A stretch of 58,671 nt of DNA, counting the filler, from Sphacelaria rigidula (lineage: Eukaryota), in NCBI GenBank assembly GCA_964200075.2. It is 9 parts of 9 records of this genome, joined end to end, with 100 filler letters (N's around TTAATTAATTAA, not from the genome) between each part and the next. Parts side by side here need not be neighbours in the genome. Positions count along the whole stretch, not along the records: positions 32,653 to 39,082 come from CAXNAA020020114.1; 8 more parts are not named here. One strand, written 5' to 3'. A program made the position numbers and the translations under genes. The notes under the pieces were generated by a model. It had not been told where the DNA came from, searched no databases, and was given only the letters and a program-made list of their open reading frames with translations. Of the stretch, positions 16,692 to 36,813 are shown one piece after another (the first letter of the stretch is position 1; every line of letters begins with the position of its first letter).

Positions 16692-17783
16692 ATGGGAGAG
16701 TTTCATTTTTCTGACAGTACAGCAGACCAACCGCGGAGAATACGGAGAAGGTCTCGGGTAGAGGTCAATCACGTACGAGATGAGCACGAGCAAGAGCATA
16801 GCAGCAGAGGGCAGAGTACAAATAGCGAATGCAAAGAACAGACGCAACGTATATTTTTAGCTCCACAGGCGGCTTTTGTGAGTAAGTCATCGCAGAAAAA
16901 TAAAAAATCGAAACACCAATCTTCGTTTTCGAACCCGATCCTAAATGATCACTGTTATGACTCATACAACACATTTTCGCTTGCCAAATATACAGTTGCG
17001 CCTTTAGCGTTGTCCTGTGCATCAGCCCGTGTGAGAGTCACGGCCAGAGTAAACGGCACCCCCGCTGAAAAAATCACATTTGATTCCGCAGCAGATGTGC
17101 CCTGTATCAGGAAAAGGTTCATCGATGAATACCCGGTCATAATGGCAGCTGATATAAAGCCAGTACCGCCAGGATCGATAGACCTCAGAAGCGCGGATGT
17201 TTTCCTCATGAAAATTGTAGGTTTCAGACGTTTCGAACTTACGTTAGGGAGAAAAACCCCACCAGTAGAAGCGTTCGCATTGCCTAACTTAGGACCGGAT
17301 TGCCTGTTACTGGACAATTCCGTTATGAGTGCTTTCCAAGCTATACTCGACTGGCAAGCGGAAGAGCTAACATTCCGTGATTCCAGTTTGAAAATCAAAG
17401 CATCGCATCGAAAACAACAGTGTTCACAAAACACAACACACCCCGATACGATGCATTGTTCTGTAGTCAGTGTGAACTGTTCAAACGCTGTTCAAGTTTT
17501 TCTCACGAAGAAATGCAATGTGCCCCCTTAGAGTGAGGTGGCAGTGTTAATTAAAACGGAAAATACCCCGTCACCAACAACAGCAGCCGTCGTTGAGCCA
17601 CGCATAATAACCGAAGAAAACATTCGATCAACCGATATACCCCGAGCGTTCACGCGCATCGTCGTTGCAAAGACGGTGTGCACATGGTCGGCAACAAAGA
17701 AGACGGCAATGGTACAAATCGCCAACCCGTCGAACCGACATGTGAACCTGAAACGTAATACGATTTTAGGCTATATCACCTGA
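16692..17783 (+). pseudogene. Gypsy aspartic protease region
   Basis: ARVNGTPAEKITFDSAADVPCI (D-S/T-G/A protease motif) and CLLLDNSVMSAFQAILDW. In-frame stops at 17531 and 17783. Confidence 0.8.
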
Positions 17784-17811
17784 GTACGAGAAACAAAACC
17801 AGCTACAGTCA

Positions 17812-19310
17812 GTGCAATGGCGGGAAATAAGGTGTCAGAGAGAAAATACGAAAGAGGAATTACGTCCAGCTTTACGCAAAGCTTTCGAAAACACGACCTT
17901 TTCCCCCAAACAATGCTCTCAAGCACTGGATCTTTGCGCAAAATACCGTTCTGTGTTTTCACTTACTCCGCAGGAGTTGGGCTGTTGTATGTTAGATGGA
18001 GCTCGATTTCCGCTCAAACCTGGGACTCAGCCGGTAGACCGAGCACCATATAGAGCAAACCCCAGAGTGCAAGATGCAATCGACAAATGCGTCGACCAGA
18101 TGGAAAAAGATGGTATAGCCGAACAACGCCCAAGCCCGTGGGGATCAGCAGTTACAATAGTCGCAAAAGTAGACGGAACAGCACGATTTTGCGTAGATTA
18201 TCGAGCAACGATCCATAAAATCTTGGTTCGCAAATCATGGCCCATGCCAGCTATCAAAAGTCACATAGACACAGCAGCGGGGGCGAAATTCATAACACTT
18301 TGCAATGTACAAAGTGCGTTCCACCAGATACCAGTGGCGGAAAGAGAAAAAGAGAAAACAGCGTTAGTAACTCAAAGAGGGAAATGGGTGTGCAACCGGT
18401 CACCATTTGGTTTAGCGTGTTCACCCTTTGTCTTTTCACGCATAATGGCACTCTCATTTTCACACTTTGGACCCAAGAGTGGTTTACTAGTGTATATGGA
18501 TGGCATAATGTGTTATTCATCAAGCTGGGAGAGTCATCTCACCCTACTAGAAAGCACGTTCAAAGCACTGCAAACAGCAGGCCTTACACTAAAGCCGACA
18601 AAAATTCAATTTGTTCCAGAGCAAGTCAAATACTTGGGCCATGTACTGTCCGCAGATGGCATCAGAGTGAGTGGTGAAAGAACGAAGGCTATCCTCGACT
18701 TGCCGAAACCCACCAATATCAAAGAGTTGCGATCAGTACTCGGTACAATGAATTTCGTACGGAAATTTATACCAGACTTGGCTACAACCATAGCACCACT
18801 GGGAGATCTCACAAAAAAAGGGGCAGCAAAACAGGTGTCGAAACTATGGAATACTGAACATGATGAAGCCTTCGGAAGAATAAAATATTTGATGACCGAG
18901 GCACCCGTTCTTTATTTCCCAGATTTCACGAAATACTTCACTATAAACGTCGATGCTTCAGACCGTGGGGCCGGGGCCTACGTTTCCCAAAAGAAAGGCG
19001 AAGACGAGGCAATCGTAGCATACAACGACGCCCAAGCCCGCTATTCGCTCAACATGAAAGAATGTATACGCGGTCGTATTAGCGATCCAATATTTTAGGG
19101 CCTTTTTGTGGGGACGTCACTTTACGTGTGTAACAGACCATTGCCGCTCTTCGATATTTGTATGCGATGCAGGATACAAGTAATATGTTGACCCGCTGGG
19201 CGGTCGCATTGCAATCGTATGATTTCACGGTCAAACAAAAACCGGGGAAACTTCATGTTATACCGGACACCCTGTCACGGCTGTTCGCGTTTGAAAAGCG
19301 ACAGGAAGCA
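17812..19310 (+). pseudogene. Gypsy reverse transcriptase-RNase H, inactivated
   Basis: SPWGSAVTIVAKVDGTARFCVDYR, SAFHQIP, PFGL, VKYLGHVLS, INVDASDRGAGA and the frameshifted RH tail (WGRHFTCVTDH...LTRWAVALQSYDFTVK...KPGKLHVIPDTLSR). Catalytic residues are altered: YMDG for YxDD, and LCNVQ at the first Asp. Confidence 0.95.
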
Positions 19311-31545: not shown

Positions 31546-32552
31546 AGTGGTGGAAGCTCTGTTGTATGGGTGTGCCACATGAACGCTACGTTCTGAGGAC
31601 TTCGACAGTCTGCGCACTGCCCATCACAAGCTCTTTCTGCGAGTGGTTGGATTCCGCAGGAACGATCGAAATGGCTACTAGACTTTTTCGTACAGAGCGG
31701 TGCTCGAGATGACCAACTGCGAACGTATCGAGACGACTATCCGCAAACGTCAACTCTGCTTCGAGGGAGCCCTTGTCCGGCAGAAGGACAAACGCCTTCC
31801 CAAGCGTGTCATGAACGGTCGGCTTTCCACACGAGGACCCAAGGAGGTCTGCCGCCCCCCCAAGCAATGGGAGGATACGATACCCTAAAGGAGAACCTAC
31901 GCGCGTTAGGGGCTGTCCCGCACAAAGAAGCCCGACGAAAGTGGTTCGTCTACGGTGTAGAGGTGAACGATGCATACGATTGGGTCACTGCGGCGAAGGA
32001 CCTGGGCAAATGGCACATTGGAGTCGAAAAGGGAGCGGAAGACTTTGAGGACACGTGGCGATGCGCGCACAAGCGAGAATCAGACCGCTGTCACAAGCGA
32101 GAGGCTGCTGCGTCGAGGGCTGCCAACCGGAGAATCCTGTTTGCTCATATCGGTTGTTGATTATGTCCTTAGTCGGTGGCTCTGCGGTACCCACTGGTGT
32201 GTACTCTGCTGCCCTGAATCCCTCAGGCCTTTTCCTTCTTGTTTTTTTTTTCATTTTCCCCCCCATCGTTTCATTGTATTTTATTTTATTTGCTTTGTAC
32301 TTTCCCCTTCTTTTCATTTTTTTGTTTTAGGTCGGCCATTTCTTTCTGTGCTTTGTTTGTCTTGATTTTTTTATTACTTTTTTTTGTCACGACTTGGTCT
32401 GCTATGTCGTTCTGTTCGGCCCGTCTTTCTCTTTTTTTTCTGTTCCTTTTTTTCTTTCTCAGAGTGTGTTCCAGTTTCGTTTTTGTTGGGTACGTCTATC
32501 ATGAGACCACGGCTGGACCCCTGGGGGGTCAGTTAAAGTGCGACAATCAAAA
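31546..32552 (+). mobile_element. 5'-truncated RTE-like non-LTR retrotransposon: ORF C-terminus, 3' UTR and (CAAT) tail
   Basis: VVEALLYGCAT*TLRSEDFDSLRTAHHKLFLRVVG...CERIETTIRKRQLCFEGALVRQKDKRLPKRVMNG...RPPKQWED is the typical RTE post-RT region. T-rich UTR ends GTCAGTTAAAGTGCGACAATCAA. Stops and frameshifts present. Confidence 0.88.
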
Positions 32553-32744
32553 NNNNNNNNNNNNNNNNNNNNNNNNNNNNNNNNNNNNNNNNNNNNTTAA
32601 TTAATTAANNNNNNNNNNNNNNNNNNNNNNNNNNNNNNNNNNNNNNNNNNNNAAAAAAAAAAGGAATAAAATAGACAAGAAGACAGAGCCAGGCTCGTTC
32701 CGGCGGCGGGGGGGGCGGGGGGGGAGGGGGGGGGGGCGAAGCAC

Positions 32745-33355
32745 AGACGAAACAAAAACAAACAAACAAACAAACAAAACAACAGGAACAAACGATGAAC
32801 AAAGCAGAGATGGGGACCAAATATAATGCTCTGCGTATCTGGCGTCGGCTATGGCGAGTTGCTGTTGGTACTGTCGGTCCCAGGTGCTGTCGGCGGTGCA
32901 TCTTGGCCTGCAGCTTTCGCGTGCCGTATCGCTGCCTCTGCGTCGTCCTTTTGGCACCAGTCCGCCATAAACCTTTCTGCTCCCTGTCCAACACAGCTGT
33001 GCCACTCTACTGCATTCAAGGCTCTGGTAGTCCAACCCTGCCATTCGATACCGGACGCCTTCATGTCTTCCGCTAGGCAGCGGATCCAGTCCTTGTGCCT
33101 GCCGTTAAACTCTCTTTCTTGCCCCTTCACGGCTATAATTTCACCGAACATGACGTGTTTCGGTATCCGTCCGGGTGACATGCGCGTGATGAAACCGGCA
33201 ACATGGAGTCTCCTCTTCGTCACCGTCGTCTCGATGCTTTCGCACCCTGTCCTCGCGAGGGTCTCTTGGTATAACAAAACGTGGTCTGTGGCGATTGCGC
33301 CTGTGCCATCCAAGACAGCGCCTGAGCAACGCATGGTGGGCCGTGCGAAGAAGAG
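32745..33355 (-). mobile_element. 5'-truncated RTE-like LINE fragment (second subfamily) with (TTTG)n tail
   Basis: LRTAHHALLRRCLGWHRRNR / TDHVLLYQETLARTGCESIETTVTKRRLHVAGFITRMSPGRIPKHVMFGE...KDWIRCLAEDMKASGI. (AAAC)n on the + strand at ~32750-32790. Confidence 0.88.
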
Positions 33356-33453
33356 GACATTAAAAAGCCGTTCCGGTATCTGCGCAGTGCCGTCCTGGGC
33401 ATCTGACTCGTACAGTTGGACTTTGTACTTGTGGTACAGTAGCTCGTACGAAT

Positions 33454-34229
33454 CTAATCTACCCAGTCTTCGTCGGTTGTCGGAGTATCTTGAAAGACGC
33501 AAATAAGTCAAACTGGTAGACACGGGACTACGGGGTTTTTGAAGAAAATGGGTATCAATCGGACGTGACCGGCGATACCCCAGGCATACTTACCTGGCGG
33601 GGGCTCGCCAGTGGTCATGATGACTGGTGACCCCAGGGGGAGCAGGCTCTTGCACTGGCTGAGATAAGCCTGGAGTGCTGTAATCCCTGGAGAATATCCC
33701 TCCGGGGGTATCTCTACCGCATAATTTTTTGCCGGGGAGGTGTCCGCTTGCGGCCCTCCCAACACACACCTGACACAAAAACAACACCGCCCACGGTAGG
33801 ACGAAGGCGATAACACAAACCACGTATGTAATATAAATCAATGCGCACACACCGCTCGTTCCTCTGTCCTAGGAGTACCAGTTCTATCATCATTCTGATT
33901 GCGCTGTCTGCTGCTGTCTGTGCGTACACTACTGCGATGCATAGCTGTGTATTACGGTGTACTCTTCTGCGCGTGTCTGAGGCAGTGGAGGTCCCTCGCC
34001 ACGTACATACATACGGCATACTGTACTGTATGTATACAGTAGTCAGTTTTATCACCCCTACCCTGGCGATGGGAGGGTGAACGCTTCGATTCCGTCACTT
34101 CTTCTCTTATTTCGCTACTATGGTCCTCGTTCTTCAGACTACTTCGTTCGTTGCGTGTATCTTGATCTTCCTTCATCTTTCCCCTTCTTCGCGAGGTTCT
34201 CCCACCATGTGTTTCCGTTTTGCTTTCCT
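33454..34229 (-). CDS. Hypothetical antisense gene: exons 34229-34062, 33944-33849 and 33488-33454 (stop)
   Basis: Three AG/GT-bounded, phase-1-compatible open segments giving ..ESKTETHGGRTSRRRGKMKEDQDTRNERSS..SPSHRQ-AMHRSSVRTDSSRQRNQNDDRTGTPRTEERAV-YTPTTDEDWVD*. No homology recognised. Confidence 0.35.
33515..33546 (+). promoter_or_regulatory. Putative snRNA proximal/upstream sequence element (U1)
   Basis: GGTAGACACGGGACTACGGGGTTTTTGAAGAA starts 71 nt upstream of U1 +1; same motif at the same offset before U5 and U2. Confidence 0.8.
33586..33760 (+). ncRNA. U1: U1 spliceosomal snRNA (possibly a variant)
   Basis: 5' ATACTTACCTGG (5' splice-site pairing); stem-loop I TCGCCAGT-GGTCATGATG-ACTGGTGA; TTGCAC in loop II; Sm site AATTTTTTG at 33723-33731; terminal GC hairpin GGGAGG...CCTCCC. 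Length ~175 nt. Confidence 0.93.
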
Positions 34230-34386
34230 CTGAGTACGAGTATAGATGTCTAGCTTGTGACCACTATCGTGTGGCTGGGTTCGTACGGTATAGCTCGTGA
34301 CAATGCAATGAAATCATGAAAAAATCTAGTCATTTGTCATTTGGGTACTGCCTACTGCAGTGGGTGGGCCAATACCGTGTCATTTT

Positions 34387-34415
34387 AGTAGACTCTGAGC
34401 GACGGGGTTTTCGAA
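34387..34415 (+). promoter_or_regulatory. Putative snRNA proximal/upstream sequence element (U5)
   Basis: AGTAGACTCTGAGCGACGGGGTTTTCGAA; the ACGGGGTTTT core begins 56 nt before +1, as for U1 and U2. Confidence 0.72.
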
Positions 34416-34457
34416 AGTTGGTGTACTCAATCCGGGAAACTCTGCAGGCCTTGTTGC

Positions 34458-34567
34458 ATCTCCGATCCTCTCGCATCACGAACTTTACCCTCGCCTTTTA
34501 CTAGGATAAACCGTGCTGAGAGGATCCCGAAGGAGTTCTTACGATTTTTGACCCCACTCGTGGGGTA
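34458..34567 (+). ncRNA. U5: U5 spliceosomal snRNA
   Basis: Invariant loop 1 GCCTTTTAC (34493-34501) on top of a long stem (GATCCTCTC/GAGAGGATC, CACG/CGTG, TTTA/TAAA with the CCG bulge); Sm site ATTTTTG (34544-34550); 3' hairpin ACCCCAC-TC-GTGGGGT. Length ~110 nt. Confidence 0.93.
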
Positions 34568-34988
34568 ACCAACAACAAGCAACCGAAATCATCAGCTGCC
34601 TGTATGTTTCGTTGCGAACTCCCGTCGGTACTCGTGTAGATGAGTAAGATGACGATCGTACACCAGACGCAGACTTCGCAATTATACAGTAGCCTTTCTC
34701 CAACGACACGCGTAGACCACATAGCCGACACCAACAACAGCATTTTCGAGCACGGTACTGCCTTCGTGGCTGCGACGGGTGTCTCGCTGGTATATCTTGG
34801 TAAAGATCTGGCTGTGGCTGAGGAGAACAATATCTCTTCACACCTCCGACCCCATTTTGGTGCGCAGTCACATGGCAAGAACGACAACAAAGCAGCAGTC
34901 AGCGGTCTGAGATTGCATTCAAGAGTCCTACTCGTAGCGCAACATACTGCACTCGCAGCTTTTTCTCGGTTGCGATCAGCGTGTGATC

Positions 34989-35021
34989 GGTAAAACCGGG
35001 ACTACGGGGTTTTCTGAAGAA
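34989..35021 (+). promoter_or_regulatory. Putative snRNA proximal/upstream sequence element (U2)
   Basis: GGTAAAACCGGGACTACGGGGTTTTCTGAAGAA starts 71 nt upstream of U2 +1; 17-nt exact match CGGGACTACGGGGTTTT with the U1 element. Confidence 0.8.
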
Positions 35022-35059
35022 TGTGGTTCAGAAAAACGTTACATGCACCTGCCTGCAGC

Positions 35060-35241
35060 ATACCTTCTCGGCCTTTTGGCTAAGATCATGTGTAGTATCT
35101 GTTCTAATCAGTGTGAAAACTGATTGACACTCACCGAGTGTCATTTTCACACCTGTTTTTGTGATCGTCGGGTTGGCCGTGCTTGCAGTGCTCCGACAGG
35201 ATTTCCTCGGCATTTCACTACCGCCTTGTGAGGTCCATCCC
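35060..35241 (+). ncRNA. U2: U2 spliceosomal snRNA
   Basis: 5' ATACCTTCTCGGCCTTTTGGCTAAGATCATGTGTAGTATCTGTTCT with branch-point recognition GTAGTA (35092-35097); stem IIa ATCAGT/ACTGAT; stem IIb TGACACTC/GAGTGTCA; Sm-like GTTTTTG; stem III GTCGGG/TCCGAC; stem-loop IV GGC-ATTTCACTACC-GCC. Confidence 0.96.
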
Positions 35242-36813
35242 CTCGGGGACAACTGAGCGTAACTACAACAATGTTCTCCAACAACGCATATACCGAGAAA
35301 AATCACCTTGACTGTCGTACTCGTTACCGCATGCTCCCGCGGCAGCAGACCCCAACAAACAGTGACCACAACAAGACGATAGACATTGAGCACCAGCAGC
35401 AAATCTATACAGTACATGATAATACCATAGTCGGTATTGCGGGCGGACCTCAGGCTTCCCTCGATTTATTATGCGAAATGTCTGGGAAAACGTTTTGAAA
35501 TCGTGACACCCCGATTTTTTCTCTCCCGATTTGGCCGAGTTTGGGGTCGGTCCATAAAATACGTTCCCCGATTTGTTACCCCCGATCTGCCGATCTTCGT
35601 AGTAATCAAAATTGGTGACTACTATCAAAGATGGTCTAACTTAGCCGAGGAAAGCATGCTCCTCTCAGCTGGTGAGAGCCTTGTCAAATGTGCAAAAGAG
35701 ATATGTATGCCTTTAGACACGAGAAGAATGACTGTCAGTGCACCGCAAGGAAAGCTATTGTCGCTGAATAATTGGAAATGTGTATTAAAAAAAACTGTTT
35801 TCTCGCTGTGCTGTGGTGGACCAGTACGTAGCAGGTTGACTGCATGAACAACAGGAATAACTGCGTACCAGCAGGTAGTAGGTTGGCACTAGAACGCCGA
35901 CATACAGCGAGTCATGACTAGTTGGGTAGACAGTGAGTGTGTGGTTAGGATCACCAATGACGAACGACGACGACCCCGACGCAGTTGCCTTGCAGCAGCA
36001 TTAGAAAATGACATATATATCTATATGTATGTGTGTGTTTCATGAATAATTCGTAATAATATGCACAGCTACTGCTTGCTTCCCCCCTGTGAAGCCTGTC
36101 TGTGTTCTACATCTCGATAAATAGACTGAAAACAACAATAGTGACGATGGCAACAACGGTACTGCACTCCATCGGGTAACGGGGATGGTACTAATACTTC
36201 ATTATTTTGATGAAATATTTTCGGTACGGGTCTGAGATACGCACATTTGTCGAAAGTCGACGCTAACCAGCAAGCAAGCAGAATAATCACTTGCGAAGAG
36301 CGCACGCACCCAGATGCACCCGAGGCTCACAGAAAGCATAGCCAGGATCCCAGCACCCCATCAAGCACAAAATCTGCTAAAAATGTCAAAATTTTCGAAC
36401 AGATATGCATGTAGACAAGTTGCAAGGTAGAACGGAAGGGATTAAGGTGAAATGAAAAAGGGAGGTGAAAAAAACGCGCGGGTTTTTGGGGCTGCATTCA
36501 AGCTCCGGCGACACATGTGCGTCCCGTCAGTTCATAATTTCACTCCCCCTCTCGACGGACTGGGCGTACTGCGTACGTACATCTCGATTTTTCAGGCTAA
36601 GATATCGAATGGAGGGACACAGGGGCTAAGCCTGGAGTGCAGAAGACGTAAAGGGCATCATTGACAGAGCGCGGGGGTGAAAACGGGGGAGAAAACAAGT
36701 GCACCATCAGTAGTATAGTTTCGGTGTAGCAGCTACTCCTCCTGCTGTAATGACCACCGAAGGGAAAGATCCAGCACACCAGCACCACCACAGCTGTCGA
36801 AAAAACACCCGTC

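Follow-up and report, generated by a model that had tools for sequence, protein, structure and literature searches.

A box at a fixed distance upstream of the U1, U5 and U2 genes of the brown alga Sphacelaria rigidula: a candidate lineage-specific snRNA promoter element

Elements upstream of snRNA genes have been described in animals, plants and ciliates as well as in a few protists; they differ from lineage to lineage, so that they need to be discovered afresh in each. SNAPc combines the Myb repeats of SNAP190/SNAPC4 with SNAP50 and SNAP43, and elements of the PSE or USE kind, accompanied by a TATA box, also stand at type-3 genes of Pol III (U6, 7SK/MRP).

The available text of PMC9652321 places the human PSE 'approximately 40-70 bp upstream of the TSS'. 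In insects, the corresponding element, PSEA, is 21–25 bp long, and the sections of PMC1761439 that bear on it describe a sequence that changes fast between lineages, with position and role kept. In humans and in the green algae analysed, Pol II is the polymerase that uses TATA-less promoters of the type-3-like kind, according to the promoter sections of PMC8287931, in which Fajkus et al. surveyed USEs across Diaphoretickes, including SAR. Among stramenopiles, those same sections give Blastocystis and Proteromonas a conserved USE and describe the other stramenopiles analysed as being without one in most snRNA promoters. This telomerase-RNA survey and a survey of MYB proteins (PMC8854648), each as represented by the text available, are all that the literature searched yielded on snRNA promoters in connection with brown algae or stramenopiles. 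A description of a brown-algal snRNA promoter was not found in the literature searched, a scope outside which lies the supplementary per-genome USE table of Fajkus et al., possibly relevant here.

Here we analyse an upstream box shared by three snRNA genes of Sphacelaria rigidula. The window, by which we mean the whole stretch of DNA analysed, is 58,671 nucleotides long and consists of parts of this genome joined end to end.

A cluster of three snRNA genes

RNA genes were called by Rfam at the gathering threshold across the whole 58,671-base window. The search returned three genes, all on the plus strand and all matching from model position 1: U1 at 33586–33760 (RF00003, 92.9 bits, model positions 1–166), U5 at 34458–34566 (RF00020, 65 bits, model positions 1–117) and U2 at 35060–35243 (RF00004, 140.6 bits, model positions 1–192). 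The U2 gene itself goes past the Rfam match, its terminal stem, CCCCTCGGGG, extending to about 35250. The U1 gene begins ATACTTACCTG, and its Sm site, with a run of six T, is found at gene position 140. Together, the three genes span 1.7 kb. A permissive Rfam scan of the window gave nothing credible beyond them, the window thus containing no recognized Pol III type-3 gene such as U6 or 7SK/MRP, and no tRNA genes were found in the window.

The surroundings are gene-poor, with Pfam matches in only 2 of 91 long open frames of the window. Far from the snRNA cluster, the window holds a remnant of a Ty3-type retrotransposon (17770–19095, plus strand), recognized by RVT_1 and RNase H-like domains in an open frame, and an exon matched by Pfam to a RibD-type cytidine/deoxycytidylate deaminase (2853–3215, minus strand), whose best named relatives, each 73% identical to it, belong to two brown algae, Ectocarpus and Choristocarpus.

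Closer to the cluster, a fragment of a retroelement protein lies at 32957–33436 on the minus strand, defined by homology over residues 52–211 of P0121, the open frame upstream of U1. P0121 has six relatives, four of which are partial Sphacelaria rigidula proteins (68–89% identity), and one unnamed relative carries a reverse transcriptase domain (RVT_1); no longer relatives were found, and an Atlas look-up for P0121 returned only unnamed animal clusters (0.84–0.90). The fragment comes to within 79 nt of the U1 box described below and 150 nt of the U1 start, and it limits the amount of native upstream DNA left to the U1 gene. If U1 is active, its upstream needs would therefore fit within about 150 nt, which would make its promoter compact. 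A (CAAA)n tract at about 32750–32790 lies at the presumed 3′ end of this minus-strand retroelement fragment (region 32740–33436) and may be the tail of a non-LTR element. At 32553–32652, two runs of N surround the 12-mer TTAATTAATTAA, apparently an artificial linker between joined contigs; N letters in the window total 714.

An upstream box at a fixed distance

A box of 29–30 nt begins exactly 71 nt before +1 at U1, U5 and U2 alike, where +1 is the start defined by Rfam, that is, by homology rather than by mapping. The box reads GGTAGACACGGGACTACGGGGTTTTTGAA at U1 (33515–33543, −71 to −43), AGTAGACTCTGAGCGACGGGGTTTTCGAA at U5 (34387–34415, −71 to −43) and GGTAAAACCGGGACTACGGGGTTTTCTGAA at U2 (34989–35018, −71 to −42), on the plus strand in each case. 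Its core, ACGGGGTTTT, is the longest word common to the three 130-nt upstream regions and stands at −56 in all three (33530–33539, or −56 to −47, in U1; 34402–34411 in U5; 35004–35013 in U2). The sequence-only reading had claimed a shared element of about 30 bp at an identical offset from the three snRNAs, with an invariant core at −56, and both claims are borne out by these positions and by the counts below.

Outside the core, the copies vary. The U5 box deviates most, being identical to that of U1 at 19 of 25 positions by an eye count, with all 6 differences in the 5′ part. The U2 box has one additional base after the run of T (TTTTCTGAA), and the boxes of U1 and U2 contain CGGGAC/CGGGGT as a direct repeat whose units lie 8 nt from each other. 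We found the motif strings of the box and their reverse complements in no relevant paper of the literature searched.

Several lines of evidence, all drawn from a single genome and a single cluster of three genes within 1.7 kb, set the shared box apart from chance. First, with the boxes compared at their common offset, the three copies agree in 17 of 25 columns, a number that none of 18,035 triplets of random window positions attained (maximum, 13). A common word of at least 10 letters, at any offset, turned up in only 1 of 4,518 random triplets. Second, exact ACGGGGTTTT occurs three times in the 58.7-kb window, and all three copies are at the snRNA boxes. When up to one mismatch is allowed, the window contains 8 matches, against a chance mean of 4.49 and with 8 of 100 shuffles also reaching 8; this count is at chance level, so that what carries the signal is the exactness of the copies and where they stand rather than raw abundance. 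Third, a weight matrix derived from the boxes gives the boxes themselves 33–37 bits, a score that is circular for these three, and gives its next best site in the window 10.9 bits, under the maxima of 20 shuffled windows (11.6–17.8 bits). By word and by matrix scan, we thus found no further copy of the box on either strand of the 58.7-kb window. Finally, a repeat search run blind on positions 32500–36500 returned the three boxes as the top direct-repeat family (37 nt, 70–73% identity), and this family alone connects the three loci.

Starts, flanks and gene ends

The three predicted starts lie in the same immediate context, with GC|AT at −2 to +2 in all three genes and hence C at −1 and A at +1 at every start. 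Between box and start, no TATA word is present in the −45 to −15 interval of U1, U5 or U2. The flanks outside the box do not align among the three loci, and a search of −400 to −73 on both strands for a shared distal word gave nothing that exceeded the null set by random triplets. The start context, the unrelatedness of the remaining flanks and the lack of a TATA box near −30 had all been noted from the sequence beforehand, and each holds up in these searches. The box accordingly keeps a fixed distance across three snRNA classes whose flanks are unrelated, at a position, −71 to −43 in all three genes, where a PSE or USE is found. As the flanks are otherwise unrelated, the three loci do not stem from recent duplication of a cassette.

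The hexamer TCAATC occurs at exactly −31 to −26 in both U1 (33555–33560) and U5 (34427–34432); U2 has CAGAAA there. Judged by sequence, TCAATC could be a second, weaker promoter element of U1 and U5, or chance. Being absent from U2 and present in U1 and U5 only, it is not established as a second proximal element.

Runs of T occur within all three genes, at their Sm sites (T6 in U1, T5 in U5 and T5 in U2), and no run of at least four T is present in the 60 nt downstream of U1, U5 or U2. Internal T-runs with none directly downstream, a layout without the terminator logic of Pol III, are what is found at a Pol II snRNA gene; the pattern favours Pol II and disfavours Pol III.

The DNA that follows the three terminal stems is rich in A and C, and AACAAC and ACAACA are common to all three loci within 35 nt of the stems. 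On the plus strand, AACAACA lies 20 nt past the terminal stem of U1 (33780–33786) and 5 nt past that of U5 (34571–34577), and ACAACA (35265–35270) and AACAAC (35280–35285) follow the terminal stem of U2. Any common hexamer arises in 544 of 37,328 triplets of random 60-mers (1.5%). As a candidate signal for 3′-end formation, the shared AACAAC/ACAACA offers a weak lead.

U2 loci of other eukaryotes

We searched metagenome contigs with the 5′ stretch of the window's U2 gene, and contigs of prokaryote genomes with the same stretch carrying one degenerate position. The metagenome contigs yielded 20 U2 loci, none of them from a brown-algal relative: all begin ATCGC or differ in stem IIa. The prokaryote genome contigs yielded 30 loci, all of which are eukaryotic U2 contamination from other lineages, leaving no brown-algal copy among the 50 U2 loci of the two collections. 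The U2 gene of Sphacelaria rigidula stands out at its 5′ end (35060–35110), which reads ATACC where most other U2 genes collected have ATCGC, and by T in GATCA-A/T-GTG, a position at which most U2 copies of the prokaryote-genome collection have A.

The box matrix was applied to the DNA upstream of U2 in other eukaryotes, in 30 distinct regions each 130 nt or longer, a set that excludes duplicates and loci with shorter upstream DNA, and none of the 30 scored above 5.4 bits. Within this sample, the result shows the box to be no general feature of eukaryotic U2 upstream sequence, and it says nothing on brown algae. Rapid divergence of PSE sequences would lead one to expect 0 of 30, so that the result lends no positive support to the reading of the box as a PSE. 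One near-match, ACGTGGTTTTAGAG at locus L011, lies about 10 nt nearer +1 and was judged to be chance; that locus also has histone 3′ stem-loops. Four metagenomic U2 upstream regions aligned as a positive control are 83% identical and, overall, too similar to one another to inform. Viral contigs gave no match to the U2 pattern; they gave five matches to GGGACTACGGGGTTTT, all without box context or a downstream snRNA, and these were set aside.

Eight of the 20 metagenomic U2 loci adjoin histone 3′ stem-loops (L003, L005, L008, L010, L011, L012, L014 and L017), from which it appears that snRNA genes sit within histone clusters in some marine eukaryotes. On another metagenome contig (L020, positions 568–1551), 5S rRNA, U1 and U2 occur together. 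Eukaryotic U2 genes are also present on contigs filed as bacterial MAGs (Anaerolineae, Dehalococcoidia), some of them in tandem arrays with 2,081-nt spacing (L025–L027, L029, L030, L033, L034, L038, L039, L044, L045 and L048–L050; L022, L023, L041, L043 and L046), which points to eukaryotic contamination of the bins.

Proposed promoter and alternative readings

From its position and length, the lack of a TATA box and the pattern of T-runs, we read the box as a core promoter element of Pol II snRNA genes, and we consider it probable that it is a lineage-specific element of the PSE type in this brown alga. The factor on the box is most probably SNAPc. That a protein binds the box, which factor it is, where transcription really starts and that the genes are active are points that we infer. 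Counting against the reading are the divergence of the U5 box and the statement in PMC8287931 on stramenopiles other than Blastocystis and Proteromonas.

In the mechanism that we propose, a sequence-specific factor, most probably the alga's own SNAPc, would occupy the box at −71 to −43, making its main contacts with the invariant ACGGGGTTTT and with the RGTARA part on the 5′ side. Once bound, it would place TBP, TFIIB and Pol II on the TATA-less spacer. Transcription would then start at the A of GC|AT, at a pyrimidine–purine step that lies 56 nt downstream of where the core begins, with the start chosen by the fixed distance and not by the sequence of the spacer. The absence of TATA would mark the genes for Pol II, as it does in vertebrates and green algae, and the box would be the functional counterpart of the animal PSE or PSEA and of the plant and protist USE.

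The choice of factor is where a competing reading fares best. The box was compared with six USE consensus sequences, namely the plant USE and five from Table 1 of PMC8287931, the part of that paper used here, and after correction it showed no significant likeness to any of the six. Given that the box resembles known PSE and USE consensus sequences no more than chance would have it, one might suppose a genuine cis-element whose binder is a lineage-specific factor other than SNAPc, either an activator or an unrelated Myb-type protein, with the basal machinery positioned in some other way; the CGGGAC/CGGGGT repeat in the U1 and U2 boxes might be read by a dimer or a multi-repeat protein, whatever its family. 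We regard this as unlikely, however, because position, length, sharing across snRNA classes and absence of TATA are all traits of SNAPc-dependent promoters, and because lack of resemblance is what the rapid divergence of PSE sequences between lineages, as set out in the available sections of PMC1761439, would produce. Moreover, proteins of the 4R-MYB class, to which SNAPc4 belongs, are reported in brown algae in the available text of PMC8854648.

A different possibility retains SNAPc and turns its site around. The G-rich core would then be the widespread C-rich USE core (CCC-R-T-A; compare Blastocystis AACCCRTAA) on the opposite strand, with the SNAPc site inverted at the same distance from the start. 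Read on the opposite strand, the core (ACCCCGTAG) agrees with the Blastocystis consensus at 7, 6 and 7 of 9 positions in the three boxes (P = 0.013, uncorrected for the six motifs). We rejected this match as evidence of homology, since it falls on the opposite strand, its P value is nominal and the three boxes are not independent of one another, and we think an inverted USE very unlikely. Were it true, SNAPc would be able to position Pol II from either orientation, or the complex would have been remodelled in this lineage.

Very unlikely, too, is a block without present function, either a relic of a promoter cassette that was long ago duplicated or spread by gene conversion within the cluster, or the edge of a dispersed repeat that chances to lie near the three genes. 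With all copies within 1.5 kb, one can conceive of local sequence exchange, but three different RNAs lie downstream, the surroundings of the block are unrelated and the 58.7 kb contain no additional copy; an unconstrained relic, furthermore, would not hold an exact 10-mer and a base-identical offset in three of three cases. Finally, although PSE and USE elements work with both polymerases in known systems, a type-3 promoter of Pol III with the box as its upstream element, and with Pol III making these snRNAs as it makes every snRNA in some protists, is scarcely credible for genes whose internal runs of T5–T6 would halt Pol III and which have neither a T-run in the 60 nt downstream nor a TATA box at −30.

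Should the box prove, as a PSE-type element, to hold genome-wide, it would provide a search handle for further brown-algal genes of the SNAPc type, such as U4, U3, U6 or a candidate telomerase RNA, in the way that PMC8287931 used such elements. For a group now emerging as a model, it would also supply a compact promoter from which to express small RNAs, for example guide RNAs, and it would add a data point on how far an element can drift in sequence with its position kept.

Comparison with known promoter elements

The vertebrate PSE is, in the available text of PMC9652321, an essential element external to the gene, common to U1, U2 and U5 and, for Pol II, free of TATA; the box described here, at −71 to −43 and likewise TATA-less, is arranged in the same way. 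In sequence, the box is unrelated to the vertebrate PSE as far as the two were compared, and the interval from −400 to −73 has no shared distal element that would resemble an enhancer.

The likeness to insect PSEA lies in size, the conserved part here being about 25–30 bp. Insects have in addition a second block, PSEB, about 30–37 bp from the start of PSEA in the sections of PMC1761439 available, whereas no second element is established in Sphacelaria rigidula. Also in contrast to insect PSEA, it is the 3′ part of the box, ACGGGGTTTT, that is invariant.

The plant USE, common to snRNA genes and near −70 in the promoter sections of PMC8287931, is alike in position. Plants use a USE together with a TATA box, and the spacing between the two sets the choice of polymerase; with no TATA word in −45 to −15 of any of the three genes, a promoter of the plant type, USE plus TATA, is not what these genes have. 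Nor does the sequence agree. The best matches to the plant USE, RTCCCACATCG, cover 7, 7 and 6 of its 11 positions, all on the opposite strand, and sum to 20 of 33 against a null mean of 18.9 (P = 0.32). The sequence-only reading had likened the GGGAC half of the box to the reverse complement of the plant USE, and this resemblance falls away as being at chance level; its wider suggestion of a lineage-specific PSE or USE keeps its fit to position, to sharing among snRNA genes and to the TATA-less context.

The box is therefore PSE-like by position and context, and its sequence ties it to no described element among those compared. The logic is the one that the available sections of PMC8287931 describe for the USE of Blastocystis, itself a stramenopile, and of other Diaphoretickes, in which a short, lineage-specific element stands upstream of most snRNA genes.
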